NCBI GenBank assembly: GCA_018304465.1
Contig: JAGVWC010000006.1
Coordinates: 1 to 50,047 of the forward strand
DNA: 50,047 nt
Reading direction: 5' to 3'
From: Candidatus Iainarchaeum sp.
Lineage (GTDB): Archaea > Iainarchaeota > Iainarchaeia > Iainarchaeales > JAGVWC01
Below are positions 6,854 to 49,788 of the stretch, piece by piece. Below the pieces are notes generated by a model that saw only the letters and a list, made by a program, of their open reading frames with translations, was not told where the DNA came from and ran no database searches. The translations under genes were made by a program, and so were the position numbers. The first letter of the stretch is position 1, and each line of letters opens with the position of its first letter.

Positions 6854-7786
6854 ATGTCGTATTTAGCCAAATTCAAACGCGGAAAAAAGACCTATTACTA
6901 TTTAGCGGAAAACATCCGCCTCACGCCGCATAAGCGAAAACAAATCCGCCAGTACATCGGAGACCAATATCCTTCCGAAAACCGCCTTCGCGGCCTCATG
7001 GTCGAATTCGAAAAACAGGTCGAACAGGAAAAAACAAAACTGCACGGCCACCATTACCTAACCCAAATTGAAATCGAAGAAGTCGATTCAATCAATAACC
7101 AATTCTGGGAACGTTATAACGCACAGAACAAATCCGTTCAGGAACAATTCGACCAAAACTTCATCGCCGTGTTCGTCTTCAACACCAACTCAATCGAAGG
7201 ATCCACGCTCACCCCCAAAGAAGTCGAATTACTGCTGGAAGAAAACATCTCACCCAACAGACCGTTGGACGACGTGCTCGAAGCCAAGGGAGCCCAAAAA
7301 ACAATCGAATACATCAAAAATCACAACGGAGAACTAGCCGAAGAACTTATCAAACAACTCCACCAGAGGTATTTCCAGGAAACCAAACCCTACATCGCCG
7401 GGCAATACAAAACTCGACAAAACCGAATCAAAGGATCCGAATTCGATGTTACCCCACCCCACGAAGTGCCCGAACAAATGAAGCAACTAATCCAAGAATA
7501 CCATCGCCTCAAAAAAGAATTACACCCCCTTGAACTCGCGGCATGGGTTCACTGGAAATTCGTATCCATTCACCCATTTCAAGACGGAAACGGACGCATC
7601 GCACGGCTACTGATGAACCTGGTTTTGCACAAGAATCATTATGGTATGATTGACATCAAAACCAAGGAAAAACAAGCATACTTCAAAGCGCTCGAAAAAA
7701 GCAATTACGTCCAAAACGGGGCGCCGCTCGCCACCCGACTGGTCCGACGGTTCAAGAAAGAATACCAGAACGCGCTCAAAGACTAA
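6854..7786 (+). CDS. Fic-family protein (AMPylase) with N-terminal basic beta domain
   Basis: Canonical HPFQDGNGRIAR; inhibitory-helix-like TNSIEGS; N-terminus KRGKKTYYYL. Confidence 0.93.
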   Translation: MSYLAKFKRGKKTYYYLAENIRLTPHKRKQIRQYIGDQYPSENRLRGLMVEFEKQVEQEKTKLHGHHYLTQIEIEEVDSINNQFWERYNAQNKSVQEQFDQNFIAVFVFNTNSIEGSTLTPKEVELLLEENISPNRPLDDVLEAKGAQKTIEYIKNHNGELAEELIKQLHQRYFQETKPYIAGQYKTRQNRIKGSEFDVTPPHEVPEQMKQLIQEYHRLKKELHPLELAAWVHWKFVSIHPFQDGNGRIARLLMNLVLHKNHYGMIDIKTKEKQAYFKALEKSNYVQNGAPLATRLVRRFKKEYQNALKD

Positions 7787-8052
7787 CTACCACAAAAAAA
7801 TCCGGCCGACCATCGAATTCCTGCTGGACGAATACAAAGAACTCCGAAAACAATTCAAGGTGACCGCAAAAAAGTAGTGTGTGGTCACCCAAAATGCACA
7901 AAGCAGAAACTCGCCCCTTACAAAACAGAATTAAAAAGTAGGGGATAAAACCCAAAACCACTTCACACTCGTTTCTGCTTGGCACTCCTTCGTTTCAGTA
8001 CTTCAAATCCACCCCGCCGAGTATATATAGTTCTTTAGCAATGTATACCTGA

Positions 8053-8844
8053 ATGAAGACAAATTGGCTTGTTTCACTTTTAGTTCTTGAAACCATCGCA
8101 TTTGCGGCCCTTTTTTTGTCTTCTGGAAACTTCAGTTCGGTCGCTTATGCATTAGTCATCGGGATTGTTTTTTTCGCAATTGAATTTTTCAGGAAAACAT
8201 TCAAACCGCCAAAAATTTCAAGAGAAGAGTTTGAAGAACTGAACGCAAAATACAAAAAAAACGTTGACTGGATTGACATTGGTTCGATTGTTGCATTGGT
8301 AGTGGAAACGGGAATCGTTTTTTTCCTGGTGACAACCATCAAACAATATCTATTGCCGATTACACAAGGAACGGTTTTTTTCAGCAATCCGGTTGGCTTG
8401 ATTTTTTTGGGGTCTTTTCTTTTTTCGCTCGCCACAATCGGATGGATTATGGACTGGATTGTTTCAAAGCGCTTTGGAAAAAAATATTGGATTTATTATT
8501 ATCATCTTCCAAGAGCAGGATTTGATTCGAAAAAGGTTTACTCCATCATCAGCATTATTGGATTGCTAACGGGGTTTCCAGCCCTCGTTTTTGGCTTGCA
8601 GGATTACACCATTGTAACGAACGATAACGGAATAAACCTAAACGACTGGACCCGACTAACCGAAAAACACTATGGGTGGTCGGACATCGAGTCCATTCGA
8701 AGTTCAACCCAAAACGAAAAAAAGCATTATACGATTTCCTTTTCGGACGGAACAAACTGGAGCACTTCCAACGAACGATGGAATGCAGACGAAAAAAAAG
8801 TCATGGAATTTATCTCCATCCAAAGCCATCGAGAAATTGAATAA
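8053..8844 (+). CDS. Hypothetical multi-pass membrane protein with C-terminal soluble domain
   Basis: About 5 hydrophobic segments; AT-rich; TATATA box upstream. Confidence 0.75.
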   Translation: MKTNWLVSLLVLETIAFAALFLSSGNFSSVAYALVIGIVFFAIEFFRKTFKPPKISREEFEELNAKYKKNVDWIDIGSIVALVVETGIVFFLVTTIKQYLLPITQGTVFFSNPVGLIFLGSFLFSLATIGWIMDWIVSKRFGKKYWIYYYHLPRAGFDSKKVYSIISIIGLLTGFPALVFGLQDYTIVTNDNGINLNDWTRLTEKHYGWSDIESIRSSTQNEKKHYTISFSDGTNWSTSNERWNADEKKVMEFISIQSHREIE

Positions 8845-8878
8845 GAAGCATATTCCATTATTTGGCAGTGCCTGATTA

Positions 8879-10543
8879 TTATTCCCATAACCCGTTTTTG
8901 CAGGTTTTACTGTTGACCACGGTGCACGAAGAATGACAATATCCGTCCGCCAGACAATAACCCAATGGACAGCACGCATTCGATCCGGGCACTAGAAGAT
9001 CCTGCGCGCAGCCAAGACCAAGCGAATCACATTGCGAACAAGCGTTCCCCTGTTGAGGCGTATTCCCCGTAGGCGCATAAGTGATTGGAGTCGATTGACA
9101 CCTGTTGCTCGAATTGCAGGCATCCGAAGTACAAATGTCATCGTCGTTGCAGTCCGCGGTATTTTGACAACAATTCGCAATACTGGCATGTTTACAAGTA
9201 AAGTCAACGCAAGCGTCTTGCGTGCATGCATTGGAATCCCCGCATTCGTTGTCCGTTCGGCAGTTCCCGCATCCGCTCGTAAAAAACGTGCATTCTTGGC
9301 ACCGAAGCGCGCCCGGCGCAAATCCAAGCGTTTCACACGTTTTTCCTTTGAAATCAATCAAATCGCAATCTTCAGTCCCTTCTGCCACTCCGTCTCCACA
9401 AACCACGCCGCAATCCGAATCATTCTTCGAAGTACAACCCGCCGGACAGCATTCGTCGCTGTTCACGCATTGCTGCAAGGAAAGAATCGGAACCGGCAAT
9501 TCTGCGGTTTCTTCTTTTGAAGCCCGGTTTTTTCCGCAATCTTGGACTTCAAACACATAGCTTGCGGTTCCAGAACCACATTCCGTAACCTCGTTTGGGG
9601 TCAACCAATCCGGATCCGGCAACCGGTCATCTTCAACCACTGCTTTCATTGTAACTAGAGTCATTTTCCACCGTTTGCCCTCGCTGCAAGCAAAGCATTC
9701 GCCGCCAAGCTGGCTATAACTGTCCATTCGTGGAGCATTGTCCATCAGTTTTTCGGCGCACTCGTATACAATATAACCTGCGGAACCTGTCGAACCAATG
9801 CAACCCAGTAAAGAGGCGATTTGCAAAGGAGAAAGAGCGCCTGCCGTGATGGCCGTCAATGGAACTTCCAACACCGTTACGGTACACGTACCGACAGCTG
9901 CAATGATGGACCACCCCAAGTCACCTTTGTGGTCCATGATGCATCTCCAAAAGCCCCCGCCTTTTTCTTCGCAAAAACCGAATGAAAGAACATCCGGCCC
10001 CAACACATTCACCGGCACAACAGCGGTTTCACCTGCAAAAGAAATTTGTTGAACATCCGAAAAACCCAGCAAACGAAATTCTTCTCCGTTTCTTGCGATG
10101 CCCGCATTGGAGTCGAAAAAAGTGTAATGCTGCTCATCTTCAAAATAGAGGAGAAGCGATTTCGAAAAAGTCTCGAATTCAATCCGTTGCGCAAAAAGCG
10201 CTTTTCCCCGAGCGTTGGCAAGCAAAACCATTGTCACGTTGTTTCCATCCGAAAAACTTGATTTTACAGCGCCCAAAAAAGTTCCAAATCCTTTTTCTTT
10301 AGCAAAACCAAGCACAGCATACAATTCATCATCTGAATCAAATTCAAGATCAAGATCTGATTTTGAAAGCGTTCTTTGTTCCACCAGCCGCGGGTCCTTG
10401 AGCGCATTAAGCGTTCCAAGCTGTTCGTCACTTAAGCCATTGACATCAGAAGAAAAAGGATCGCCAATCGGCGGCCAAACGCACCCAAAAAGAACAACCA
10501 GTAAAAACAAACTCGCCGCGAAAAAAAACCGGGACATCCACAT
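8879..10543 (-). CDS. Secreted/lipoprotein-like Cys-rich surface protein
   Basis: Signal ending VVLFGC; CGDGVAEGTEDCD and C-x-D-x-x-x-CT-x-DAC repeats; start probably ATG 10543 or 10537. Confidence 0.8.
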   Translation of the reverse strand: MWMSRFFFAASLFLLVVLFGCVWPPIGDPFSSDVNGLSDEQLGTLNALKDPRLVEQRTLSKSDLDLEFDSDDELYAVLGFAKEKGFGTFLGAVKSSFSDGNNVTMVLLANARGKALFAQRIEFETFSKSLLLYFEDEQHYTFFDSNAGIARNGEEFRLLGFSDVQQISFAGETAVVPVNVLGPDVLSFGFCEEKGGGFWRCIMDHKGDLGWSIIAAVGTCTVTVLEVPLTAITAGALSPLQIASLLGCIGSTGSAGYIVYECAEKLMDNAPRMDSYSQLGGECFACSEGKRWKMTLVTMKAVVEDDRLPDPDWLTPNEVTECGSGTASYVFEVQDCGKNRASKEETAELPVPILSLQQCVNSDECCPAGCTSKNDSDCGVVCGDGVAEGTEDCDLIDFKGKTCETLGFAPGALRCQECTFFTSGCGNCRTDNECGDSNACTQDACVDFTCKHASIANCCQNTADCNDDDICTSDACNSSNRCQSTPITYAPTGNTPQQGNACSQCDSLGLGCAQDLLVPGSNACCPLGYCLADGYCHSSCTVVNSKTCKNGLWE

Positions 10544-10797: not shown

Positions 10798-12384
10798 ATG
10801 TCCCTGATTGTCAAGAATCTATCCGTTTCCATCGGCAAACGCGAAATACTCAAAGATGAAAGCGTCGGAATCGCCGACGGCTCCAAAGTTGGATTAATCG
10901 GCCGAAACGGCGTTGGAAAAACCACGTTTCTCAAAGCGATCCTCGGACAAATCGATTACTCCGGCGAAATCCAGTTTCAAGGAAAAGCCGCTTATTTTTC
11001 GCAACACATCGGCTTGGACCTGGATAAAACCGTGCGGCAAACCCTAAGTGAAAAAGCGCAAACCCATCATCCGAACGCGTTCGAAGACGAATTACGCGAA
11101 ATCGAACAAAAAATGATGGATCCGACAATCCACGAAAAAAACAGCGATCAAATCAACAAACTCACGATGCGCTACGTTGAACTCCAAAACAAACGCAACG
11201 CCCATCAACCCAATCACGCGACCGGAAAAATAAAATCGGTGCTCCGAACACTCGAAGTCGACGAAGCATGGATGGACAAACCCGTGGCACTGCTTTCCAC
11301 CGGACAACGCGCCATTATCGCACTCGCCCAAGTGTTATCCGCGGACGCGGATTTATTGCTGTTAGATGAACCCACCAATCACTTGGATTTCAAGCGATTG
11401 GAAATCCTTGAAAATTATCTGCGAGAGTTCAAAGGAACCGTTCTGATGGTCACACACGACCGGTATTTTTTGGACCGCGTGTGCGACACGATATTAAAAA
11501 TCGAAAAAGGAGAATGGATCAAATACAACGGAAACTATTCCGCATACGTCAAAACGCGTCTATCCAATTTCGAAGCCCAAAAAACCGCGTTCGAAAACGA
11601 AACCAAATACCTCGCCACTGAAAAAGACAAAATTCGCCGCATCGGAAAAAGCCCGCAAAAAGTAAAACAAGGAAAATACCGCGAAAAACAACTTGAAAAA
11701 CGCGAAACCGTCGCCAAACCCGATTTGGACCAAACGCGGTTTCGCACCCATTTTGACGCCACCCCCACCAACGCCCGCATTATTTTGGAACTCAAAGACT
11801 TGACGGTCGGATACGACAAACCCCTGATTTCAGACATCACTCTACACGTCGAAGCCCATCAACGCATCATTTTGATCGGAGAAAACGGAATCGGAAAAAG
11901 CACGTTGTTCAAAACCATTGAAGGACGCCAACCCCCACTTTCCGGCCAAATCATTTGGGGAACCCACGCCAAAATCGGTTACGCCGACCAAGAACTCAAA
12001 GACTTGACCACCGACGCGACCTTATACGACGAAATCTATTCCATGCTCAAAGACATGGCCCAAACCCGGCAACACCTCTCCATGATGGGGTTCATTTCCG
12101 ACGACGAAGTATTCAAATCGATATCCAAATTATCCATGGGCGAAAAATCCCGCTTAAACCTGCTCAAAATCCTGATTGAAAAACCCAATTTGTTGTTACT
12201 GGACGAACCCACCAACCATTTGGACATCGACGCGCGCGAAATCATCGAAAACGCGTTCCTCCATTACGACGGCGCCATTTTAGCGGTTTCCCACGACCGA
12301 TACTTCATCCGAAAAATCGCGCAACGCCTGCTCAAAGTCACCAACGGAAAAATAAAAGAAATGAGCATGAACACGCCGATTTGA
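10798..12384 (+). CDS. ABC-F family ribosome-associated ATPase
   Basis: Two NBDs (GRNGVGKT, GENGIGKS; LLLDEPTNHLD twice; THDR/SHDR), arm insertion, GNYSAY linker, no TM segments. Confidence 0.92.
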   Translation: MSLIVKNLSVSIGKREILKDESVGIADGSKVGLIGRNGVGKTTFLKAILGQIDYSGEIQFQGKAAYFSQHIGLDLDKTVRQTLSEKAQTHHPNAFEDELREIEQKMMDPTIHEKNSDQINKLTMRYVELQNKRNAHQPNHATGKIKSVLRTLEVDEAWMDKPVALLSTGQRAIIALAQVLSADADLLLLDEPTNHLDFKRLEILENYLREFKGTVLMVTHDRYFLDRVCDTILKIEKGEWIKYNGNYSAYVKTRLSNFEAQKTAFENETKYLATEKDKIRRIGKSPQKVKQGKYREKQLEKRETVAKPDLDQTRFRTHFDATPTNARIILELKDLTVGYDKPLISDITLHVEAHQRIILIGENGIGKSTLFKTIEGRQPPLSGQIIWGTHAKIGYADQELKDLTTDATLYDEIYSMLKDMAQTRQHLSMMGFISDDEVFKSISKLSMGEKSRLNLLKILIEKPNLLLLDEPTNHLDIDAREIIENAFLHYDGAILAVSHDRYFIRKIAQRLLKVTNGKIKEMSMNTPI

Positions 12385-12419
12385 ATCCTGTTTTTATTCT
12401 TTTAACAAGTATTTTTCCT

Positions 12420-13418
12420 GTGAAACCCGTTTTTTATCATTTACTTGTGATCCTGGCGTTTGGCGCCTTGTTTTTCGGAACCGTTCAAGGCCACGACTTA
12501 ATCGTGGTTCACAATTCAATCGAAACCAACGAAAACGAAGTCGTCATCCAAAACGACGGGTCTTTTGCGGACACGCTCGGAGAAGATTACGAAGAACACA
12601 TCCGACAAAACCTCTTCGTGAAAAACAACCGGGAACCCTGCCCATTATCCGAATTCCGGTTCGAAGAAACTCCGATCGAATCCTTGGACATCGTGTATTC
12701 CTGCCGCGAAAACGCTTCCAACTTATCCGTTGAAGACCGCACGTTATCCAACATCGGAACCCCCGTGAACAAAATCTATGAAATCGGGGAAGGCGAAAAC
12801 AAAAAAACATTCGTCGGAGAACAAGCGATGACGTTTGAAATCCAACAAGCCCCCGAAACCGTTTTTTCCATTTTCTTCAAATACCTGATGCTCGGCCTCG
12901 AACACATCCTGTCGGGTTTGGACCACATTTTATTCATCATCGGATTCGTTCTGGCTGCCGCAAGCCTGTTTCCACTGCTTAAAAGCGTTACGGGTTTCAC
13001 GGTTTCGCACAGTGTCACATTAACCTTGGCGGCCACCGGCATCCTCGTGATTTCACCCAAAATCGTGGAACCCATTATCGCGCTGAGCATCATCGCGGTC
13101 GGACTCTTCACCCTGCTAAAAATCCAAGAAAAACAACTCAGCCGATTCTGGCTGATTTTTGGGTTCGGATTGTTTCACGGACTCGGATTCGCCGGCGCGA
13201 TTTCGGACGTCGGTTTTCCAAAAAACAACTTTATTGCCGCGTTGCTTGGATTTAACATCGGCGTCGAACTCGGACAACTCGCCGTGGTCGCCGTCGTGTA
13301 TCCGATTCTTTTTTTGGCAAGCAAATCCAAAACCCACGCCCAAACCGTCAAAACCGCAGTGGCCCTGATCGTGGTGATCAGCGGCACGTTTTGGCTGGCC
13401 ACGCGACTAATCGGATGA
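12420..13418 (+). CDS. HupE/UreJ-like membrane protein with N-terminal extracytoplasmic domain
   Basis: GLEHILSGLDHILF, FTVSHSVTL, FGLFHGLGFA, FNIGVELGQ. Confidence 0.88.
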   Translation: MKPVFYHLLVILAFGALFFGTVQGHDLIVVHNSIETNENEVVIQNDGSFADTLGEDYEEHIRQNLFVKNNREPCPLSEFRFEETPIESLDIVYSCRENASNLSVEDRTLSNIGTPVNKIYEIGEGENKKTFVGEQAMTFEIQQAPETVFSIFFKYLMLGLEHILSGLDHILFIIGFVLAAASLFPLLKSVTGFTVSHSVTLTLAATGILVISPKIVEPIIALSIIAVGLFTLLKIQEKQLSRFWLIFGFGLFHGLGFAGAISDVGFPKNNFIAALLGFNIGVELGQLAVVAVVYPILFLASKSKTHAQTVKTAVALIVVISGTFWLATRLIG

Positions 13419-13429
13419 ATCAACAAGAT

Positions 13430-14233
13430 TCACTTTGCGGCGGCCGCATACGATTGGTTCCACAACCCATGAAGAGACTTTGGAATAAACGACAACACCA
13501 CCCGTTTATCGTTTTCAATTATCTCGTTCCACGTCAGGATCCGCCCCGTGACCTTGAATTGATGTGGAAAATCCGATTTGAAGGCCACGCCTTTGGCGTC
13601 CACCAACCGTAGTTTTAAACCGTCCATCATCCAGTTGCCTTGATGCGGATGCAAATGAACCACGTCTTTTTTGTGCAAGCCCGCCAATTGCACCGCCAGT
13701 TCTTCCACGATTTTTCTTCGGATTTGCGGCGCGTACGATTCCAACGCCTGCAAAGGCGTTCCTTTCACGGCTTTGGTTATCACGAATTCGCGTCCTTTTT
13801 GAGTCATCAAAAACCCCACGGGAGTTTCAAGATACACGCGGCGACGCATCAGCTCAAGCAATACCGGAATCGATCGGCGATGCCGTCGATCCGAAGAACG
13901 ACCCAGTTTTCCGATTTTCGGAAACACTTCGGCTTCTTCTTTCACGATCACGCGATGATTTCCCGGTGTCGAAAAAACAGCTGCTCCTGGAAACCGCTGT
14001 TCCAGTTTCCATTTGGAAAGCGGAAAACCCACTTGACTTGGGCGAAAATGAATCGATTGAATCAATTCCGTTTTTTGGTTCGTGGCTCCGAAATTGTTTC
14101 GGTACACCAATTCCAATGCCCCGGGATTTTGCTTGACGGAAAAAAGCTTGCCAAACAACGGACTTGGAACCGGACGAGACACGCTTTTTTTCACCCGATT
14201 CACTAACCGCCGGACCCGCTGTTTCAAACGCAT
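13430..14233 (-). CDS. Protein-kinase-like (Kdo/RIO/Bud32-like) fold protein with atypical HLHPHQGN loop
   Basis: VIVKE, hinge VITKAVKG, LAGLHKKDVVHLHPHQGN, LVDAK; Arg-rich N-terminus. Confidence 0.72.
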   Translation of the reverse strand: MRLKQRVRRLVNRVKKSVSRPVPSPLFGKLFSVKQNPGALELVYRNNFGATNQKTELIQSIHFRPSQVGFPLSKWKLEQRFPGAAVFSTPGNHRVIVKEEAEVFPKIGKLGRSSDRRHRRSIPVLLELMRRRVYLETPVGFLMTQKGREFVITKAVKGTPLQALESYAPQIRRKIVEELAVQLAGLHKKDVVHLHPHQGNWMMDGLKLRLVDAKGVAFKSDFPHQFKVTGRILTWNEIIENDKRVVLSFIPKSLHGLWNQSYAAAAK

Positions 14234-14292
14234 ATCGAAACAAAAGCGTTTCCGCAATTAAATCCTATCGGTGCTCACAATCAAATTTTGCG

Positions 14293-16488
14293 TTACAATT
14301 TGACTTGTTTTAACAGCGACGAATTCGTGACCACGGAAACACTGCTTAACGCCATGGCGCCGCCCGCGATAATCGGCGAAAGCAAAATTCCCATGGACAA
14401 ATAAAACACGCCCGCGGCAACAGGAATCGCGACCACGTTGTAAAACAACGCCCAAAACATGTTTTGCTTGATTTTGGAAATCGTTAACCGGCTTAATTTG
14501 ATGGCTTTGGGAACATCCGTCAACTGGTTTTGCATCAACACGATGTTGCCCGTTTCCATGGCCACGTCGGTTCCGCTGCCCATCGCGATTCCGATATCAG
14601 CTTGCGCGAGCGCGGGCGCGTCATTGATTCCGTCTCCGACCATCGCGACTTTTCCTTTTTCCTGAAGCTTTTTCACGTAATTGGCCTTGTCTTGCGGCAA
14701 CACTTCGGCAAACACGTTCGAGATACCCGCCTGTGCCGCAATGGCTTTGGCGGTTCGTTCGTTGTCACCCGTGATCATGTACACGTCGATGTTGAGTTTT
14801 TGCAGTTGTGCCACCGCTTCTTTCGAAGACGACTTGATGGCGTCCGCCGCGGCAATCAAACCCAATACTTTTTTGGCATCCGACAGAATCATCACGGTTT
14901 TACCCGCTTCTTCCAGAGTTCCGAACGTGGATTTCAAATGCTCCGCGGCAATGTTGTTTCTGGCCATTAATTTTAGGTTTCCTAAGAAAAACTTTTTTCC
15001 GTTCAAATCCGCTGAAATCCCATGACCCGGCACCGCCTTGAAATTCTTCGGTGAAATCAACGAAAGATTTTGGCTGGCGGCTTTGGCGACAATCGCATCC
15101 GCCAACGGATGCTCCGATGCTTTTTCAAGACTCGCCGCGATTTTGAGGATTTCGTTTTCGCTTAATTTCGAATCGATCGAAACGATATCCGTGACTTCCG
15201 GAGCGCCTTTGGTGATGGTTCCGGTTTTGTCAAAAATAACATATTTCAATTTGTGCGCGGTTTCCAGGGCATCGCCGCCTTTGATGAGAATTCCGTGTTT
15301 GGCCCCGACTCCGGTTCCCACCATAATGGCGGTCGGCGTCGCCAACCCCAAGGCACACGGACACGCAATCACGAGCACTGCGATACTGGTGAGTAACGCG
15401 AATGCAAGACCCGCGTTCAACACGAAATACCATACGCCAAACGTGATCAAAGCGATCACGATGACCACGGGCACGAAAAACGCCGAAATTTGGTCGGCGT
15501 ACCGCTGAATCGGCGCTTTTTTGCCTTGCGCGTCTTCGATCAGCCGGATGATATGCGCCAACGTCGTGTTTTCACCGATTTTGGTGGCTTTGAAGGTAAA
15601 TGATCCATTCTTGTTGATGGTTCCGCCCACCACCGTGTCCCCGGTTTTTTTCTCAACCGGAATGCTTTCGCCCGTAATCATGGATTCGTCCACGGAAGAA
15701 TATCCGTCCGAAACGATTCCGTCCACGGGAATTCGCTCGCCGGGCTTGACCACGACAAAATCCCCGACCACGAGGCTTTCCACGGAAACCGTTTCTTCTT
15801 TTCCGTTTCGAATCACAATCGCGGTTTTTGGCGCGAGATTCATGAGTTTTTTGATGGCTTCGCTGGTACGGGTTTTCGCGATTCCTTCCAGCCACTTTCC
15901 AAGCACCACCAACGTAATGATGATCGCCGAGGTTTCAAAGTATTGCCCCGCGGCCGGATTGAACAAAATATTGTACACGCTTAACACGTACGCGGCAGTT
16001 GTTCCGACCGCAATTAATGTATCCATGTTCGCGGTCTTGTTGCGCAAAGCGGCCCAGGCACCGAGATAAAACTGTTTTCCAATGATAAACTGCACCGGAG
16101 TCGCGAGTAAAAACAACAAAAAATCCGCGAAAGGAACTTCAAATCCAAGCGGCATCAACACCATTCCGATCAAAAACGCCGGAAACGCGAACACCAAACT
16201 TAACAAAAACGTGTTTTTCATCCGGTCAAGTTCTTCTTTTTGAAGCTGGTTCTGTTTTTCAACATCCATTCCGGGATTAAATACACTCGCCTCATAGCCG
16301 CTTTTTTTCACGGCCATGATTAATTCATCGATTTTCGTTTCTTTTTCGTCAAACTCCACCATGGCTTTGGCCGTGGAATAATTGACATTGGAATCTTTGA
16401 CCCCTTGGATTTTTCGCAAGGACTTGTCAATAATAATGGCACAGCTTGCGCAATGCATTCCGGATACCTGTAACGTGACCTTGCTCAT
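14293..16488 (-). CDS. copA: Copper-translocating P1B-type ATPase
   Basis: GMHCASC, TGES, CPC, DKTGT, SEHPL, GDGIND, YN and MALSS. Confidence 0.96.
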
Positions 16489-17295
16489 TTAATTTGCCCC
16501 CGTCAATTGTTGTTTTCCCAACGGAACGAAATGAACCCAATCCAAAATAGACGCGTTCTTTTCAAGAACTCCGACCACAATGAACCGCTTGTCGAATTTT
16601 TCAAACGTGTCTCCGATTTTGGAAAAAATTTTCTCCGAGCGCATCAATTCCGATTCGCTTGCACCCAAAACCACAGGATAATACGCAACACCCGCGATTT
16701 CATGCGGTGAAAAATCCGTGAATGTTCCTTCGGCCAGTTTCGCAAAACCCGGCAATCCCGCGTTTCGATCAAGACGATAAAAAACCTTGGCCGTTTCTCC
16801 GTCCATGAGAATAAACAACCGGTTGGAGTCACCCGAAATCTTTTCGAATTCAACAGGGCTTAAAAAATGGAAATAATCCGCAGGACCATTGGTTTTCATG
16901 AGAATTCCTTCGACAGAAATCGTCAAACCAAAAAAACCATCCAATGAATCCCCGGCTTTTAGAAACAATTTTTCGGACTTCATCATGTCGGCTTCCAGTT
17001 CCCCAAGCACCATGGATCCTTTTTCAGGCAAAGGGTTTCCTTCAAACACGGAATACTTTGAAAGCGCGTTCGATTTGGCCAATGCAAACACTTTCGCGTC
17101 CCCCGCCGGCGAAAAACCGACTTTTAATTGAATTGCATCGTAAACCGCGGGATCCGAAACAGGTTCGTTCATTTCCGCATTTTGAAGTCCAAGTCCCGAT
17201 ACTCCAAAATAACCGATACTGACGACTACCAGCACTAATACGGAAAAAATAATCGGAATTTTTTCCTTCAAAATCCACTCGTGCACATTCACCAT
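16489..17295 (-). CDS. Single-TM protein with two tandem MacB-periplasmic-like repeats
   Basis: N-terminal TM; internal repeat VLG..E..MM.SEK.F.K.GD....F....V.G.L; lies within the copper operon. Confidence 0.7.
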   Translation of the reverse strand: MVNVHEWILKEKIPIIFSVLVLVVVSIGYFGVSGLGLQNAEMNEPVSDPAVYDAIQLKVGFSPAGDAKVFALAKSNALSKYSVFEGNPLPEKGSMVLGELEADMMKSEKLFLKAGDSLDGFFGLTISVEGILMKTNGPADYFHFLSPVEFEKISGDSNRLFILMDGETAKVFYRLDRNAGLPGFAKLAEGTFTDFSPHEIAGVAYYPVVLGASESELMRSEKIFSKIGDTFEKFDKRFIVVGVLEKNASILDWVHFVPLGKQQLTGAN

Positions 17296-17296
17296 T

Positions 17297-17653
17297 TTAA
17301 CCACCTTTCGCCATTGCTTTTTGGCAGGCCGCACAACCCGTGCTTTTCCCGCTTTTTTCAAAATGATCGTAGGCATCCCGAAGAATGCACCAGCAAAATT
17401 CCTGCGAAGGCCGGAACAACTTTTCCCGGCCGCGTTTTTCAAACACCACGACGCCCACTTGTTCCAGATACTTGAGTTGATGCGAAACCGCGGACAACGT
17501 CATGGACTCCCGCCCGATTACGTCATAAACTTCGTTCACGGTTTTCGGACCGGCCACGAGCGCTTTAAGCATCTTAAGACGGGTTTCGTCCGCGATCGCG
17601 GAAAAAAACCGCAGGACTTTTTTATCGATTTCGGTTGAAGATTTGGACGCCAT
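17297..17653 (-). CDS. ArsR/SmtB metalloregulator with C-terminal CxC and CxxC
   Basis: IADETRLKML, SAVSHQLKYL, FCWC...GCAAC. Confidence 0.9.
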   Translation of the reverse strand: MASKSSTEIDKKVLRFFSAIADETRLKMLKALVAGPKTVNEVYDVIGRESMTLSAVSHQLKYLEQVGVVVFEKRGREKLFRPSQEFCWCILRDAYDHFEKSGKSTGCAACQKAMAKGG

Positions 17654-17694
17654 AATAGTTGAATACTTGCTCAACCTTTTAAATATATCGAAGG

Positions 17695-19209
17695 TTAGTG
17701 ACAGCTTCCGCTGCCACCGCCTCCGCAACCGCACCCCCCGATTTTTGGAGGAGCCGCCGCGGCTTGGGCCACTTGTTGCTCCGCGGCCGCATCCAGCACG
17801 ACTTTTCCCGCGCCATCGACAGAAACGTCGTCGCGAACGATAAAAGTCCCCTGAATCATGCCCATCCAGCAACTCCAGCGCACGGTACCGGTCTTTGTCG
17901 GAGTGAATTCAATCGTTTGAAGACCCGGCTTGATACTGAAATTCAATCCGTATTCCGGCACGGTAATCGCGTTGTTACAACCGTTGATTTGTTTTCCGTT
18001 AATGATCCATTTCACGGGAACGCCTTTCTTTAGAATAAACCGATTCGGACTCCAGCCCGAATTGAGAACATCCATCCGGATTTCCTGGAAACCCGCGGAA
18101 GGACCGCCGACAATGACTCCGGTACCCGGCGGGTTATCCAACGGCAAGTCCTGAGAACCTCCAAGCAACGGGATCGAAGCCGTCGAAAAACCGTTTCCCG
18201 TCAATGCCAATCCGTTATTGACCATGAGAAGCCCCATGACCAGCACGATAACCGCCGAAAAACGCACGATGTTGTTCTGGAAACCGTGGCTTAAAAACGA
18301 GGCGAATACGCCGAACCCCAGCATCGGAATCAAGGTTCCCGCGGCAAACGCCAACAGCATCAAGGCCCCCGTGAAAACGCTTCCGGTGGTCGCCGCCAAC
18401 ACATACATGGCTTGCAGCGGACCGCACGCGATGAACAATCCATTCATCAGTCCCACCGCCAAGGGATCGCCACTGCTGTTTTTGAGCGGACCCACGCGCA
18501 GCTTATCAAACCAGCCTTGCGGCAAGCTCAATTTGCGCAGCACCGGAAAAATATTGAGGAGTTTCAATGCGAATAGTACGAGGAAAATTCCGGCCAGAAT
18601 CGCCACCGCGGCCCGAAGCTCCGGCGTGAACACCAAAAAACTTCCGATTGCGCCGAAAATCCCTCCGATCACCGAATACGAAATCAGTTTTCCGATGGCG
18701 TATTTGCTGTGAAGAGACAAATGCAATCCTTTGGGGTTTTCTTTTCGCGCCTTGGCGGTATACCCCAACACGAATCCACCGCACATTCCGATACAGTGAA
18801 AACCCGTCAGTAATCCCACCAAGAAAATCAACACGATACTGGTTTGCGCATCCAACTGCGGAATACTGATGTTAAGGGCACCGACCGTCGAAGAAACCAT
18901 CAAGTACCCGACCACCAAAAAAGCGATCGCGGTCAAGCCCAACAGAATATACATCGGACGCGCATCCGATTGTTTGGACGACGCGTCTTTGGAAGGATTT
19001 TCCGCGGAATATCCCGCTTCTTTGATCGCGGCAATGACCTGTTCTTCGGAAACCATTTGCGGATCAAACACCACTTTGGTGGTTCCGTTGGCATACGAGG
19101 CTTTCACGAAACGCACCCCGTCGATCTTTTCAACCGATTTTTCAATGATCTTTTCGCAACTGTCACACACCATGTTGCTGACTTTCAAAATGCTTTTTTT
19201 CGAATCCAT
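17695..19209 (-). CDS. HMA + DsbD_2-like TM + cupredoxin-like fusion protein
   Basis: MVCDSCE; HCIGMCGG and ACGPL; C-terminal GCNN...WSCWMGM. Confidence 0.88.
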   Translation of the reverse strand: MDSKKSILKVSNMVCDSCEKIIEKSVEKIDGVRFVKASYANGTTKVVFDPQMVSEEQVIAAIKEAGYSAENPSKDASSKQSDARPMYILLGLTAIAFLVVGYLMVSSTVGALNISIPQLDAQTSIVLIFLVGLLTGFHCIGMCGGFVLGYTAKARKENPKGLHLSLHSKYAIGKLISYSVIGGIFGAIGSFLVFTPELRAAVAILAGIFLVLFALKLLNIFPVLRKLSLPQGWFDKLRVGPLKNSSGDPLAVGLMNGLFIACGPLQAMYVLAATTGSVFTGALMLLAFAAGTLIPMLGFGVFASFLSHGFQNNIVRFSAVIVLVMGLLMVNNGLALTGNGFSTASIPLLGGSQDLPLDNPPGTGVIVGGPSAGFQEIRMDVLNSGWSPNRFILKKGVPVKWIINGKQINGCNNAITVPEYGLNFSIKPGLQTIEFTPTKTGTVRWSCWMGMIQGTFIVRDDVSVDGAGKVVLDAAAEQQVAQAAAAPPKIGGCGCGGGGSGSCH

Positions 19210-19214
19210 ACGCC

Positions 19215-19436
19215 TCACTTTTTTTCCTCAAAACGAGTGACCTTGTACCCGTCTTGTTCAATCTTTTTGACAATGTCTTCCACCCGGGTCTTTTTTTCGT
19301 CAAACCCGACGCTGACCCAGCCTTTGTCGGGATCCCCGGATACTTCCGAGATTCCGTTCAAATCCCCGACATTCATCTTGATGACCGCAATACAGCTTTT
19401 GCAATGCATTCCGGAAACCGAAAAAACCGTTTTCAC
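19215..19436 (-). CDS. copZ: Copper chaperone (HMA domain)
   Basis: GMHCKSC, 73 aa; GAGGTGA RBS before the GTG start. Confidence 0.9.
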   Translation of the reverse strand: MKTVFSVSGMHCKSCIAVIKMNVGDLNGISEVSGDPDKGWVSVGFDEKKTRVEDIVKKIEQDGYKVTRFEEKK

Positions 19437-43171: not shown

Positions 43172-43276
43172 ATGAAATCGTACGATTGCGACCTCCAACT
43201 CCGACAGCGGCCTTTTTCAAAAAGCCCGGGGAAAACGGTGAAACCGTGAAATCGTTCGACTGCGATCTCCAACTCC
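43172..43276 (+). repeat. 31-bp diverged direct repeat of the TIGR00375 gene start flanking a palindrome
   Basis: 43172-43202 vs 43246-43276, 27/31 identical. Confidence 0.85.
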
Positions 43277-44523
43277 ACGGCCCGTACGCGGGCGGCGTAT
43301 CCAAATATCTTTCCATCCCGCTTTTGGCCGAACAATCGCGTCTCAAAGGCCTTGAAATCCTGGTCACCGGTGACATCCAACACCAAAAATGGTTCGAACA
43401 CGTCAACGCCCATTTAATCGAAAACCAAAACGGCGTGTACATGGACAAAGACGAAAAAACGTTTTTCATCATCGGCACCGAAGTTGAAGACCACCACCGC
43501 ATCCACCACCTGATTTACCTGCCCGATTTAACCGCTGCGGCGGAATTCCGCGAAAAAGTCAAACCATTCGGAATACTCGACTGCTCGATGTGCGGCCGCC
43601 CCAAACTCCGGCAATCCCCCGAACAACTCAGCCAAATCGTTTCGGACGTCGGCGGATTCATGGGTCCCGGTCACTCGTTTACGCCGTACACCGGATTATT
43701 CTCGCGCTACGACTCTGTTGCCGAAGCCTACGGCGACCAAGCCAAAAAAATCCCGTTTCTTGAACTCGGACTCTCCGCGGACACCGACATGGCCGACACG
43801 ATTTTGAGCAACCACCAATACGCGTTTCTTTCATCCTCCGACGCCCATTCAGCTTGGCCGCACCGCCTCGGACGCGAATGGAACCGCATCCGCCTCAAAG
43901 AACCCTCGTTTAAAGAACTCGAAACCGCGGTCTGGGACCGCAGCGGCGAACGCATCGAATTCAACGCGGGTTTGAATCCCCGCGAAGGAAAATACCACGC
44001 CACCGCGTGTAATCTTTGCTACACGCAATACCCCTTGCGCGACGCGATCGAATCCTTCAAAATGAAATGCCCCGCCTGCGGCGGCGACATCAAACGCGGC
44101 GTTGCCGACCGCATCAAAATGCTTTCCGACACCCCAACCGGAAAACATCCGTCGTTTCGCCCGCCCTACAAACACCAGTTGCCGCTCGCCGAAATCATCC
44201 AACTCGCGCTTTTTGCCAAAAGCCCGATGACCAAAAACGTGCAGTCCAAATGGCGCGACTACATTGACGTGTACAAAGACGAAATCAACGTGCTCATTGA
44301 CGCGCCGGAAAGCGAACTCATCGAAACCAATCCGGAAATCGGAAACAAAATCAAGGCGTTCCGAAACGGACTCGTGTACTACACGCCTGGCGGCGGCGGA
44401 AAATACGGAGAACCGCATTTGTTCGATTCCCAAAAAGAAATGGACCAATTCGTTTTAGAAGCCGGAAAACGCTCGCGCGAAAAAAACAAGTTTTCCGGAC
44501 AAAAAAGTCTGAAAGGGTTCTAA
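43246..44523 (+). CDS. TIGR00375 / EndoQ-like PHP-domain nuclease with Zn ribbon
   Basis: DLQLH, TGD..H..W, IHHLI, HSFTP, ELGLSAD, SDAHS, GKYH..AC..C...CPACG. Confidence 0.9.
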   Translation: MKSFDCDLQLHGPYAGGVSKYLSIPLLAEQSRLKGLEILVTGDIQHQKWFEHVNAHLIENQNGVYMDKDEKTFFIIGTEVEDHHRIHHLIYLPDLTAAAEFREKVKPFGILDCSMCGRPKLRQSPEQLSQIVSDVGGFMGPGHSFTPYTGLFSRYDSVAEAYGDQAKKIPFLELGLSADTDMADTILSNHQYAFLSSSDAHSAWPHRLGREWNRIRLKEPSFKELETAVWDRSGERIEFNAGLNPREGKYHATACNLCYTQYPLRDAIESFKMKCPACGGDIKRGVADRIKMLSDTPTGKHPSFRPPYKHQLPLAEIIQLALFAKSPMTKNVQSKWRDYIDVYKDEINVLIDAPESELIETNPEIGNKIKAFRNGLVYYTPGGGGKYGEPHLFDSQKEMDQFVLEAGKRSREKNKFSGQKSLKGF

Positions 44524-45232
44524 ATGCTATCACACTACACTCCAAGATCCAAACGACGAGGATCAAAAAAACCGGTCCCCGTAATCCCCTTTCGTCCTGC
44601 ACACATAACTGCAAAAGGTGTCGGACAAGTCACCTACCGCGTGTTGGATCGAAACCGCCAGCGCGGATATAGCACAACAATTCCTTTCACTAGAACCCCT
44701 GAGGAATACGAAATTATTTCCAAGCAACTGCAGCAAAATGGAGTATACGTTCCACGAATGTTGGCCAAGTCCCATATTCAGAATCGCGTTGAATTTGCTG
44801 ACGGCGGAAAAAACTTATCCCAAGTGCTTCGATCAAAAGCATGGACACACACCCCAGGAAAAAACCCAGACAAAAAAATTATTGAAAAAAATATTTCGAA
44901 TGATTGGCCGAGTTCATCAACTCGGAATCGCACACGGACATCCACACGGATATAACATCATTGTTTCAGGAAGTAAAGTCGGACTAATCGATTTCAGATT
45001 GGCAACGGCTGCGGACCCCTCGATCTGGAGGGATATGAAACGCATCCGACTATTTTTCATTCACGATCATTTCAAACTGATGAGAATAATTAGAGGCGTT
45101 AAACCAATTTTCCGGACTCGGATAGAACAAAAAGCGGTTACGCGCCAGTTGTTTTCAAGCATGATCCGGCAATACCCGTGTAGCGAGAAAATAAAAAAAG
45201 AATTAATCGATTATTGCCTAGAAAATTACTGA
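44524..45232 (+). pseudogene. Frameshifted kinase-fold protein with HGHPHGYN loop
   Basis: N-half (GVYVPRM, EFADGGKNL) and C-half (HQLGIAHGHPHGYN, LIDFR) in different frames; break near ACACACACCCC at 44845-44855. Confidence 0.7.
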
Positions 45233-45236
45233 TGGA

Positions 45237-46028
45237 TCATCGCACGTACGTCAAACCGCTCGGCGGCGTGTCGTCATCCTGCAATTCTTTTTGCTGGGCT
45301 TCGATTTCCTTGGACAACTGGTTAAACGCTTTCTCGATGTTTTTGGATTCTTTTTCAATCGCCTGCATTTTCACGGAAAACCCGAATTTTTTCACGAGCA
45401 ATTCCAGCACTTTTTTCGCGGCGCCATGATCCCCGTACACGAGATTCGCGTTGGTTTCACCCATCAAACACGCGCCTTCGATGCCTTTGGCCTTGGCCAA
45501 TCCGAGCACCAAACCCGCGGCCCCGCTGATCAATCCGTCTTGGCCGCTGGGATGACAACCCGACTTGACGAACGAATCCACCAATGTTTTTGAATTCGCG
45601 CACACGATCACGCGTGGTTCGCGCGTCAAACGCGCTTCGCCGATATTGATTCCCGCCAGGGTAAAAATCTGTTTCACGCCGAATTGTTCGGCAAACGAAA
45701 CCAACTGTTGCGAAAACTCGTAATGCTCTTCGCTTTTCGAATACCGCATGTCAAGCGCGGGCTGCACGGGTCCCGCCAAAAACAAATAATCCCGGTTCTT
45801 GAATTTTACGTAAAAAAAATCGTCCTTGATCAATTCCACCAAAGAATTATGCGTATGCACCGCCGGCGGAAACGCGTCCGAATACACTTCCGCGATCCGT
45901 TCGGCTTTCAGTTCTTTTAACAAATAATCCACGACAAGTTTGCCCACCAAACCGATGCCCGGAAGACCCGTGAACAATATCGGGTTCTTGAGTTTCTTGT
46001 TCTTGATGATTCGCATCGTCGTAACCAT
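45237..46028 (-). CDS. PAC2 proteasome-assembly-chaperone family protein
   Basis: GLPGIGLVGKL, G.ISGA.GL.LG, CLMGET. Confidence 0.9.
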   Translation of the reverse strand: MVTTMRIIKNKKLKNPILFTGLPGIGLVGKLVVDYLLKELKAERIAEVYSDAFPPAVHTHNSLVELIKDDFFYVKFKNRDYLFLAGPVQPALDMRYSKSEEHYEFSQQLVSFAEQFGVKQIFTLAGINIGEARLTREPRVIVCANSKTLVDSFVKSGCHPSGQDGLISGAAGLVLGLAKAKGIEGACLMGETNANLVYGDHGAAKKVLELLVKKFGFSVKMQAIEKESKNIEKAFNQLSKEIEAQQKELQDDDTPPSGLTYVR

Positions 46029-46033
46029 TCGTC

Positions 46034-46807
46034 TCAACGCTCCGTCTTCTGAAAACTACCTGTTCCGCCAAGCGACTCGATTTTCTTGACGCCCGCATCG
46101 GATGCCGACGAAAGCAATTTTTCGGCGGTTTTGTAATCCAACGCGAAAACGCGCAACAAATATTTTCCAGATCCCGTGTAAAACAACTCGATTTTTTCAT
46201 CCTTGGCAAAATCCTGCACGGCTTTCAACGACTGTTTGACGCGCTCCACGCCGTCACCCGTCATCGAAGACACCGCAAGCAACCCTTCGACGGATTTTTC
46301 CGGAATCTCAAAACCGGTTTTGCACAACTCCGCCAATTCATTGAGAAATTCTTTCGGAACGCCCGTTGCCGCGGACGGTCCGTCCATGGCAATGACCTGA
46401 AACGCGTCGTACAAGGATTCGTATTGCTTGATCAACGGTTCGGCCACGCTTTTCCAAACGGACTCGAACGGAATCTTTCGTTTTTCCGACAAAACCTCGA
46501 TCAGTTTTCGCGCGCGCCGACCGCGTTTCCATTCCTCGATTTTTCCGCGTTCGGTTTCGGACGAAACCTTGGTCAACGACAAATCAATCTGTCGTTTTTG
46601 AAGATTAATCGAAATGATTTTCGCGGCGCGAATCTGGTTTTCCTTGACGTGATTACGGATGTTTTTGGTCCAACGCGACGCGATCTCGGAAATATGAATA
46701 AAACCCGACAAACCGTCGTTGTCCAACAAGTCGACGAACACGCCGTAATTCAATACGCGCGACACTTTGACAACAACAATATCCCCTACATTTGGAAACG
46801 GCGCCAT
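46034..46807 (-). CDS. eif2a: Translation initiation factor aIF2 alpha
   Basis: S1 domain P..GDIVV..V....YGVFVDL...GFIHISEI, NIRNHVKE, IDLSL. Confidence 0.95.
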   Translation of the reverse strand: MAPFPNVGDIVVVKVSRVLNYGVFVDLLDNDGLSGFIHISEIASRWTKNIRNHVKENQIRAAKIISINLQKRQIDLSLTKVSSETERGKIEEWKRGRRARKLIEVLSEKRKIPFESVWKSVAEPLIKQYESLYDAFQVIAMDGPSAATGVPKEFLNELAELCKTGFEIPEKSVEGLLAVSSMTGDGVERVKQSLKAVQDFAKDEKIELFYTGSGKYLLRVFALDYKTAEKLLSSASDAGVKKIESLGGTGSFQKTER

Positions 46808-46838
46808 TTCAATAACTCCTAAAAAAGCCCGAAAAACG

Positions 46839-47408
46839 TTAATGATCCAAGAGCTCGGCCATTTTCCGGTCCAAGAACAGCTTGGCGACCTTGTTGGGCA
46901 ATTTCACGGTCTCTCCCGACGAAAACGGCCCGTATTCCTTCATATCCGTGCCGATAAACGCCGGGACTTCCTTAAGAATCTTAAGAGAAAGAGTATTTAA
47001 ACCCGCAGATTCCTTGGCCGACGACGACGCGGCCGATTTCTCGCCAAACAGCGTTCCAAGCAACGACTTGTGCTCGTTCAGCAATTCGAGCACGTCACCG
47101 AACAATTTTTGCTCCTGGCGCCCCAAATGCTCATCCATCATGTCCGACCCGTTCCGGCTCGAAACCAAGGCCAAACTCAAGATTTTTTTCTGGCGAAACA
47201 AAAAAATTTCTTCCACCATTTTTTTCAAATTCGCGAAATCACGTGCTTCTTCAAGCGAAAACTCTTTTAGCGACTTCAAATATTTTTCGCGCTCCGCCAA
47301 CACGAACTCGTTTAACGAGTTGTAAAAATCCGGATCCACGTCCACGAGGCGCGCCGTGGATTTTTCAAGACGATAAATTCTCCGGATTTCATCGTACGAC
47401 AAATTCAT
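46839..47408 (-). CDS. GINS subunit (Gins51-type)
   Basis: L..VDPDFY, R.KKI..LA, B-domain VPAFIG.D.KEYGPF..GE.V.LP; ATGA overlap with priS. Confidence 0.8.
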   Translation of the reverse strand: MNLSYDEIRRIYRLEKSTARLVDVDPDFYNSLNEFVLAEREKYLKSLKEFSLEEARDFANLKKMVEEIFLFRQKKILSLALVSSRNGSDMMDEHLGRQEQKLFGDVLELLNEHKSLLGTLFGEKSAASSSAKESAGLNTLSLKILKEVPAFIGTDMKEYGPFSSGETVKLPNKVAKLFLDRKMAELLDH

Positions 47409-48655: not shown

Positions 48656-48741
48656 GTGATCCCCAAAACCATACCAAGGGTGCGGAAAAAGCTTTAAGAA
48701 AAGACCGAAAACCACTATACTTTTTGAATCCGAAAACTGGT

Positions 48742-49788
48742 TTACTCGGAAGCACTCTGGGCATCAGCGGTTTTGGCCCCTTGTTTTTGATTGCGATAAA
48801 ACTGCAGCGGATGCGTGACCGGACAATTGGCCACGCACAATTCGTACTCGCGCATTTTGGCGCAACTGGAAGGCGAATACTTGGCTTTTCCGTGACCCGC
48901 GATCCGCTCGACCTGATACCGCGTGACTTTCTCGTCAAAATTCGGCGCGCCTTTGAACGCGTCCACGATCTGATCGGTCGGCATTCCGATCGCCACCAAA
49001 AAAGTCGCGAGATTAAAACGACCCGGATGATTCACGTTTTGCCCCGCCAATAATTCGGAATAGATCTTGGCCATGCACGGCGGAAACGCGTCTTGATCCA
49101 CGGAACCCAACGACTTGAAATCGAACTCTTGGCGTTTTCGAAACGCCAGCTGTTCCTTCAGTTGACGCGAAACATCCACAAAATTTTTCGGAACGTTTTC
49201 AAGCGACACCGGAAGCGACGACGCCACGCGTTCACGCGAAAGCTCCGACAAAAACCGGCAAAAATCGTTCCGATTCAAAAAAATCGTTCCGCTATCCAGT
49301 TGCTGGTTCACCAGTTTCATGAAATCCTCGCGAAAATTCGCTTCCAAAAAATCCGTCAACGCCACTTGCGCGAAAAAACCTTGTTTCGAACTCGGATGCG
49401 CTTTCGAATTCATTTCATTGGCCAACCCCAACAAGGTTTCCTTGTTCGATTCCAGCGACAAATAAAAAAAAGTCTGGCGCGCGAACAAATCCGCGAACCG
49501 ATCGAAAAACTCCGGCTGGTTCATGGCTGACAACAAAATCTTGGCCACCGGAAACGCCTGCACGTCCGTTAACAACAAATCCGACGAACCAATCTGGCGC
49601 TCGGAAAAAAACTTTTCATACTCCGCTTTCTTGTGCGGTTTTTGGGCGAAAACAATCAACAACACCGCTTTTTTCAACACCTGGGCCGGCACCCGGTTCA
49701 ATTCAAAACCGTTCAGTTTCAAGACCTGGCGGCTCGTGGCCGAAAACGGGAACTTGGAGGCAAACCGTAATTCGTCAATCGAAAACAT
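48742..49788 (-). CDS. priL: DNA primase large subunit
   Basis: KFPF, FPPCM, H.GRF.LATFL, PNFDEKVTRYQV, Y.P.SC..M....LC...C...HPL. Confidence 0.93.
   Translation of the reverse strand: MFSIDELRFASKFPFSATSRQVLKLNGFELNRVPAQVLKKAVLLIVFAQKPHKKAEYEKFFSERQIGSSDLLLTDVQAFPVAKILLSAMNQPEFFDRFADLFARQTFFYLSLESNKETLLGLANEMNSKAHPSSKQGFFAQVALTDFLEANFREDFMKLVNQQLDSGTIFLNRNDFCRFLSELSRERVASSLPVSLENVPKNFVDVSRQLKEQLAFRKRQEFDFKSLGSVDQDAFPPCMAKIYSELLAGQNVNHPGRFNLATFLVAIGMPTDQIVDAFKGAPNFDEKVTRYQVERIAGHGKAKYSPSSCAKMREYELCVANCPVTHPLQFYRNQKQGAKTADAQSASE

Follow-up and report, generated by a model that had tools for sequence, protein, structure and literature searches.

Among proteins of the protein-kinase-like (PKL) fold, Bud32 and RIO act as ATPases or phosphotransferases. 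The aspartate of the HxD motif is one of the most constant residues of kinases, and its loss is the usual ground on which a protein is labelled a dead kinase. A pseudokinase is operationally defined by the lack of at least one of the β3 lysine, the HRD aspartate and the DFG aspartate (PMC12599244, PMC4718504). The former source also describes the replacement of the β3 Lys by Arg as a pseudokinase trait that marks some bacterial pseudokinase families (PMC12599244), and the latter treats the change from HRD to HGX as a convergent pseudokinase motif and describes the pseudokinases ROP5B and ROP5C, in which HGH stands for HRD, the Asn and the DFG Asp are kept, ATP is bound and activity is thought to be absent (PMC4718504). 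In this article, two genes of the tiny groundwater archaeon Candidatus Iainarchaeum sp. are compared with these systems. They lie in a stretch of 50,047 nucleotides (contig JAGVWC010000006.1 of assembly GCA_018304465.1), referred to as the window, and their products carry His at the position of the catalytic Asp within a loop of the form H-x-H-P-H-x-x-N. No paper on this family was found by full-text search, and no curated Pfam or NCBIfam model covers it.

The loop of gene 1, the representative of family 1, reads HLHPHQGN and is followed by VDAK (translation LHKKDVVHLHPHQGNWMMDGLKLRLVDAKG, also given as GLHKKDVVHLHPHQGNWMMDGLKLRLVDAKG), and that of gene 2, the representative of family 2, reads HGHPHGYN and is followed by IDFR (VHQLGIAHGHPHGYNIIVSGSKVGLIDFRLA, also given as RVHQLGIAHGHPHGYNIIVSGSKVGLIDFRLA). 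In both, the catalytic Asp of the PKL motif HxD is absent and His stands in its place, while the metal-ligand Asn and the DFG Asp are present, and both genes fall under the operational definition of a pseudokinase through the absence of the HRD Asp. H-x-H-P-H-x-x-N is a conserved signature of the family and not a trace of sporadic decay. The first-pass annotation of this DNA had read the His-for-Asp exchange in both genes, had described gene 2 as otherwise dissimilar, and had regarded the exchange as selected rather than decayed. All three statements hold: the loop is as read, BLASTP aligns only 27 residues of the two proteins, around the loop, at 37% identity, and at the level of the family His is the rule, in 42 of 58 and 27 of 30 sequences, rather than a sporadic variant among homologues with HxD.

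These counts come from profile searches of two kinds. A profile of gene 1 and P0002, run exhaustively with HMMER against 1.84 billion cluster representatives, matched 58 proteins at E ≤1e-3. With their loops read on the profile of the family-1 alignment A4, the residue at the Asp position is His in 42, Asp in 13, Glu in two and Ser in one. All 13 Asp-bearing matches have E-values of 1.8e-7 or weaker, and 30 of the 33 best matches carry His; ten of the Asp forms are 426–574 amino acids long, most of them with two matched stretches, and most of the 13 carry H.DLH..N or H.DLK..N. For family 2, a word-indexed profile search returned 15 proteins, one of which is the window's own fragment of 110 amino acids, with QGNTH (P0067), HTHPN (P0072) and YYHPH (P0074) as loop variants. 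When the profile of the family-2 alignment A5 was run against 215 genomes of the window's own phylum, 31 places in 26 genomes were matched at E ≤1e-15, and the 30 family-2 loci comprise 27 with His and three with Asp (HNDPH, HNDAR and HNDCG), the loop at three of the 30 being taken from matches to the pattern H.HPH..N. Full-length family-1 matches (E ≤1e-20) occur in 11 of the 215 genomes. A tally of profile matches in 181 of the 215 genomes is not a family count, since at E ≤1e-5 true Bud32 is matched too (for example G000 C11), and up to five profile matches are found in a single genome (G002, G005). The family is thus patchy yet widespread in the phylum. Gene 1 and gene 2 are best explained as members of a radiation of small kinase-fold proteins, Bud32/Kdo-like, lineage-specific and multi-copy, in DPANN archaea, the hosts being the group labelled Iainarchaeum or Micrarchaeota by NCBI.

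The distribution of the motif itself was also surveyed. In the window's genome (1,246,008 bases in 15 contigs, 92% complete), a six-frame scan detected H.HPH..N only at the gene 1 and gene 2 sites. A wider pattern search, which the first-pass annotation had proposed for archaea at large, was run in back-translated form on the 215 phylum genomes and gave 81 matches in 60 genomes, compared with 16 for the reversed control. The motif thus exceeds chance; at least 33 of the 81 fall under listed profile matches, and at least seven are chance because they contain an in-frame stop. A strict DNA pattern, HGHPHxxNW, was tried on genome contigs as a map of the family's range and rejected, its 69 stretches being close to the estimated chance number; three of them are kinase-like in frame, all three archaeal and two labelled Iainarchaeum, and the pattern misses gene 1's own HLHPH.

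Structural models place both families in the PKL fold, as had been supposed from the motif. Gene 1 was modelled with AlphaFold2 from alignment A4 (41 sequences), giving a mean predicted local distance difference test score (pLDDT) of 93.8 and a predicted template modelling score of 0.87. Because the window's gene 2 is split, family 2 was modelled on the intact homologue P0005 with alignment A5 (13 sequences), giving a pLDDT of 92.1. In a Foldseek search of the PDB, all matches of the gene 1 model were kinases with a probability of 1.0, and human PRPK had the highest template modelling scores (0.48 by query, 0.57 by target). In VIA-align, which is independent of Foldseek, the leading matches of gene 1 were Rio1 (1zp9, Z 13.2, 197 residues aligned at a root-mean-square deviation of 3.9), WaaP (6dfl, 12.8), Bud32 (4ww5, 12.7), Rio2 (1tqi, 12.7) and APH(2'') (12.5), which amount to ties. 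P0005 matched Bud32 4ww5 (Z 14.7, 193 of 221 residues aligned), WaaP (14.6), Bud32 of M. jannaschii (13.4) and Rio1 (12.6). Across both families, the Z-scores to Rio1, WaaP and Bud32 range from 12.6 to 14.7 over 170–197 residues. The models thus depict both families as minimal protein-kinase-like folds of the Bud32/RIO/Kdo/APH kind, to which that of gene 1 adds an N-terminal helix and a long β-hairpin (residues 2–63).

The assignment of the His residues to catalytic positions is supported by profile alignment. In a comparison of the A4 profile with PDB sequences, vHgHPhekN falls on VHKDLKSKN of KSR1, and in hhalign against the phylum's Bud32, HGHPH..N falls on HGDLTTSN. The residues of gene 1 that correspond to these positions, with their conservation in A4, are listed in Table 1. 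In A5, the first His is present in 11 of the 13 sequences, the middle His, the Pro and the third His in 12 each, and the Asn, the DFG-equivalent Asp and the Lys that follows it in all 13. The presumed β3 region of family 2 has conserved Arg (R24 in 12 of 13, R26 in 11 of 13) and no Lys. The fold, the H-x-H-P-H-x-x-N loop and the D-x-K at the DFG position are conserved over sequences of only 20–40% identity. The residue counts and the profile alignments bear out the proposed change from Asp to His with the metal-binding Asn and Asp retained.

Table 1. Features of the two His-loop genes of the window and conservation of the corresponding gene 1 residues in alignment A4.
Feature	Position	Strand	Conservation in A4	Remarks
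Gene 1, family-1 His-loop kinase-fold protein	13430..14233	minus		Intact open reading frame, 267 amino acids from ATG at 14233
Gene 1 catalytic loop H193-L-H195-P196-H197-Q-G-N200	13634..13657	minus		
Gene 1 H193			41/41	HRD His
Gene 1 H195			38/41 His (2 Glu, 1 Ser)	Catalytic Asp position
Gene 1 P196			36/41	
Gene 1 H197			34/41	Catalytic-loop Lys (Thr in Bud32)
Gene 1 N200			41/41	Metal-binding Asn
Gene 1 D212-A-K214, DFG equivalent	13592..13600 (D212 = 13598..13600)	minus		Conserved Lys at Asp+2
Gene 1 D212			41/41	DFG Asp
Gene 1 K214			34/41	Lys two after DFG Asp
Gene 1 K98, presumed β3 ATP-anchoring Lys	13940..13942	minus	K 24, R 12, other 5 (K or R 36/41)	In model strand 94–99; Bud32 β3 Lys by hhalign, invariant there
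Gene 2 N-terminal part, frame 1	44524..44879	plus		Frame continues to stop 44953–44955
Gene 2 zone of +1 frame change	~44830..44879	plus		Holds A6 run 44859–44864 and A7 run 44872–44878
Gene 2 C-terminal part, frame 2	44861..45232	plus		Family-2 FRMIGRVH..G..HGHPH..N..VGLIDF and YPCSE; within open reading frame 44618–45232
Gene 2 catalytic loop HGHPHGYN	44933..44956	plus		
Gene 2 D-F-R, DFG equivalent	44990..44998 (Asp 44990–44992)	plus		D-F-K in relatives

The relationship of the two families to known kinases was assessed by profile comparison and by a tree. The genome has its own true Bud32 (contig C11, 195.7 bits, HGDLTTSN...DFGMG) and its own RIO (contig C15, 196.2 bits, HADLSEYN), so gene 1 and gene 2 are extra paralogues and not mutated housekeeping genes. 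Neither gene reaches the cut-off of any Pfam or NCBIfam model, and the most frequent weak Pfam matches among the 41 members of A4 are WaaY (10), APH (8), Kdo (4), Pkinase (4) and ABC1 (4). In hhalign, family 1 aligns with family 2 at a probability of 98.6% (E 8.9e-16, 97 columns) and with Bud32 at 97.9% (E 5.6e-13, 133 columns), and family 2 aligns with Bud32 at 98.0% (E 1.5e-13, 147 columns).

The tree comprises 88 rows and was computed with a short IQ-TREE search under LG+G4, with support from the SH-like approximate likelihood ratio test (SH-aLRT) only and with the catalytic-loop columns removed. It omits the fragments P0001, P0006, P0024, P0028, P0033, P0037, P0066, P0068 and P0070, ten long Asp-bearing proteins (P0038, P0047, P0050–53, P0056–58 and P0062), and P0063, the split gene 2 and loci L119–121, L123, L124, L133, L142 and L146. 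Five Bud32 rows form a clade of their own (support 95), and all other rows fall into a clade of 82 (support 96) in which rows with Asp are basal. This larger clade contains one that is family-2-like (34 rows, support 98) and one that is family-1-like (44 rows, support 92), gene 1 standing beside P0009 within a clade of 25 rows (support 98). The minimum number of changes between His and Asp is five. An HNDPH protein (L134) is sister to an HNHPH protein (L141) with an SH-aLRT support of 98 and 52% identity. At L134 (G002:C144), two family-2-like open reading frames lie in tandem 38 bases apart, 633–1343 with HNHAH and 1381–2067 with HNDPH, and constitute a natural His/Asp pair. Within family 1, a subclade with an SH-aLRT support of 99 (P0019, P0026, L045/L017 of G145 and P0023/L043 of G132) carries loops that read either HLE(P/A)S..N, where Glu occupies the Asp position, or HTSVTPNN, where Ser does. 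The tree has many long branches and 40 unresolved forks, which leaves the order of events unsettled.

Gene 2 differs from gene 1 in the state of its reading frame. The first-pass annotation had treated 44524–45232 as one gene, and this interval of 709 bases does contain HGHPHGYN...IDFR but is not a single open frame. Frame 1 extends over 44524–44955 (143 amino acids), and the N-terminal frame matches the N-terminal halves of the homologues P0003–P0005 (T.R, R.RGY, NGxYVPR, F..GGK), whereas the C-terminal frame matches the C-terminal halves of the homologues, which are single open reading frames of 221–262 amino acids. Since both halves align to single-frame homologues, the frame must move by +1 within the zone given in Table 1. 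Logan contigs of four public runs from three studies (X1, X3, X6 and X7), compared over 44400–45268 or 44400–45300, agree with the window at every letter and show no gap; the window's DNA may stem from X1 and X3, and X6 and X7 resemble one data set. Because the contigs of the four runs carry the identical sequence, the frameshift is probably real in the DNA and not the slip of one assembly, although a shared sequencing artefact could still explain it. Unless the A runs allow the frame to be restored, the window's gene 2 has probably become a pseudogene recently.

Among the functions that can be considered for these proteins, the one tentatively favoured is that of a Mg-nucleotide-binding slow ATPase or phosphotransferase with His as its base. 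In this mechanism, the basic residue of β3 would hold the Mg-nucleotide together with the Asn of the loop and the Asp of DFG, and the His at the Asp position would serve as a general base that activates water or an acceptor hydroxyl, resulting in a slow ATPase switch or a phosphotransferase, as for Bud32 and RIO. A Mg-nucleotide site that is still used is suggested by the Asn and the DFG Asp, both of them invariant, and by a β3 residue that is basic in most members. In 57 of the 58 exhaustive-search matches and in all 30 family-2 loci, the Asp position is occupied by His, Asp or Glu. The residues found there are mostly capable of acid or base action; the swaps among His, Asp and Glu between close relatives fit a position still acting in this way.

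Several observations weigh against this interpretation. No glycine-rich GxGxxG loop is present, and the β3 position is Arg in 12 of 41 family-1 members, family 2 having conserved Arg there and no Lys. There are also variants with Ser (P0023/G132) and with Asn (P0067), and HGH in place of HRD is known as a convergent pseudokinase motif (PMC4718504). The gene 2 copy in the window may be decaying, as it is frameshifted. In addition, no conserved neighbourhood was seen for either family at the loci examined (nine of family 1, and 30 of family 2 with short flanks), and for this reason no pathway can be named. A bolder proposal, that His has taken over from the universal catalytic Asp throughout the family without loss of activity, acting as base or as transient phospho-acceptor in an active site rebuilt with the help of H197 and of the Lys that follows the DFG Asp, is possible but doubtful. 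If true, it would provide a natural, conserved alternative for phosphoryl transfer in a kinase fold, for which the Asp, Glu and His paralogues would be a ready comparison set.

It is almost as probable that the proteins are nucleotide-binding pseudokinases, which would bind ATP and metal without transferring phosphate and would act as scaffolds or conformational switches in the manner of ROP5. The loss of the HRD Asp places them there by the usual definition (PMC12599244, PMC4718504), and ROP5B and ROP5C show that HGH with the Asn and DFG Asp kept can accompany ATP binding in proteins thought to be inactive (PMC4718504). The β3 Arg of 12 of 41 family-1 members and of family 2 throughout is of the same tendency. 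So is a fusion to a protein-binding module at locus L029 (G079:C60, 1099–2571), where HEAT repeats (PF13646, E 1.7e-6) come after a kinase domain with the His-loop (HGHPHLGNW) in a product of 490 amino acids, the loop and flanking residues recurring in L101, from a named Iainarchaeum metagenome-assembled genome. On the other hand, the loop is tightly conserved (H195 in 38, P196 in 36, and N200 and D212 in all 41 members of A4), and in most variants it is Asp or Glu, not Asn or Gly, that takes the place of His, which fits a residue that still does chemistry; neither the conservation nor the exchange rules out a conserved binding site.

A different chemistry at the His cluster, in which H195 and H197 with D212 or N200 would bind a transition metal or form a phospho-His, or in which the fold would carry out nucleotidyl transfer, as the first-pass annotation had suggested, is unlikely and has no support beyond the motif itself. 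Of the three His that the motif packs into five residues, two occupy positions which in kinases are turned towards the phosphates, and gene 1 lies between a HupE/UreJ metal permease (12381–13418) and a copper-type P-type ATPase (14293–16488), surroundings that are suggestive of a His-rich site. However, this neighbourhood is not conserved: among nine related family-1 loci, only L045 has an adjoining membrane protein, of the DsbD_2/SfLAP type, the neighbours of the others being unrelated. H197 is moreover the least conserved of the three His (34 of 41), no SelO- or SidJ-like feature was seen, and His two residues after the Asp position is also found in ordinary Asp-bearing matches (HRDLHAGN, HGDLHxGN, HPDPHPGN), so that only the change from Asp to His is special. 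The notion of decaying kinase genes without function, for which the frameshifted gene 2 with the same sequence in the contigs of four runs could be cited, is very improbable and already contradicted for the family as a whole, given that gene 1 and its homologues are intact, that neither half of gene 2 is otherwise interrupted by a stop, and that the motif persists in about 40 clusters defined at 50% identity and in two deeply split families.

With regard to the immediate surroundings, the open reading frame of gene 1 spans 13430–14257 on the minus strand and would give 275 amino acids from an upstream TTG at 14257; the alignment of its homologues begins near the ATG. The gene lies in a metal-handling cluster (12381–19218), in which the P-type ATPase (14293–16488) carries an HMA domain and is followed by an unassigned open reading frame of 317 amino acids (16489–17442) and an HMA-DsbD_2 membrane protein (17695–19218). 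A link between gene 1 and metal transport was considered and is unsupported, as the nine related loci have no common neighbour by Pfam on the flanking open reading frames. PemK/MazF-type toxin genes occur within 2 kb of the family-1 gene at two of the nine loci (L044, 4759–5148; L049, 2230–2703), a number too small for a link. At locus L046 (G182:C6), a replication factor C gene (7528–10404) is split by an intein that contains a LAGLIDADG domain (Pfam Intein_splicing, LAGLIDADG_3, Rep_fac_C). Elsewhere in the window, a Fic/DOC domain protein (PF02661, E 7.9e-27) is encoded at 6854–7786 on the plus strand.

The ATG of gene 2 directly follows the stop of a gene of 445 amino acids (43186–44523, plus strand), whose product scores 321.1 bits to TIGR00375, just below the cut-off of 326.6, and matches no Pfam family; TIGR00375 is presumably endonuclease Q. 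A tblastn comparison covering 30 family-2 loci with about 1.5 kb of flank each found this pairing in the window alone. On the other side of gene 2, a housekeeping block on the minus strand (45237–49806) encodes a protein of the PAC2 proteasome-assembly family, aIF2 alpha, and the small and large subunits of DNA primase.

In comparison with known systems, Bud32/PRPK, the kinase/ATPase subunit of KEOPS (TIGR03724; PDB 4ww5, 3en9, 8k20), resembles both families in its small two-lobed fold without an activation segment, with Z-scores of 12.7 for gene 1 and 14.7, 13.4 and 13.3 for family 2. It is the best NCBIfam match of both genes, but at 22.8 and 35 bits against a cut-off of 125 bits, and its HGDLTTSN loop and DFGLG differ from the HxHPHxxN and DxK of the His-loop families. 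RIO (PF01163; PDB 1zp9, 1tqi) is likewise a small atypical kinase or ATPase, and in structure gene 1 matches Rio1 best (Z 13.2). In Pfam, gene 2 reaches 17.9 bits against the RIO cut-off of 22 and gene 1 has no match; the genome's own RIO has HADLSEYN in place of the His-loop, and N-terminal helices specific to RIO were not noted.

WaaP and its relatives (Kdo/WaaP/InaA, PF06293; WaaY, PF06176) are similar in structure (6dfl, Z 12.8 for gene 1 and 14.6 for family 2), and the nearest ESM Atlas clusters of gene 1 are bacterial WaaY, Kdo and InaA (score 0.97, template modelling score about 0.6). The His at Asp+2 is shared with Asp-bearing kinases of the form H.D.H..N, which are the weakest matches of the exhaustive search, and Asp-bearing rows of the Kdo/WaaY type stand at the base of the His-loop clade on the tree. 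The scores remain below the Pfam cut-offs (gene 1 to WaaY, 17.3 against 20.3; gene 2 to Kdo, 18.3 against 21.3, and to WaaY, 15.9 against 20.3), WaaY and Kdo being reached at E ≤0.01 by only 10 and 4 of the 41 members of A4. These kinases differ from gene 1 and gene 2 in having the catalytic Asp rather than His, and to our knowledge the archaeal hosts have no lipopolysaccharide.

With ROP5 of Toxoplasma, the similarity lies in the same exchange of Asp for His after H-G, in the kept Asn and DFG Asp, and in the binding of ATP (PMC4718504). ROP5 differs in being a eukaryotic ROPK with a full-size kinase domain, so that the resemblance would be convergent and not homologous at the family level, and it has no P-H after the His. 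Precedents exist for the fold and for the HGH swap; there is none for an entire family that conserves HxHPHxxN...DxK and has Asp and Glu forms as its natural counterparts. Such a family adds a multi-copy, unannotated group to the small genomes of DPANN archaea, in which most lineage-specific genes have no assigned role. Purifying selection on its His is clear, its metal ligands are unaltered, and it has close relatives with Asp or Glu. It would therefore allow a direct test of whether His does the work of Asp or whether HGH represents a state that senses nucleotides without catalysis and evolved separately in archaea and in ROP5.

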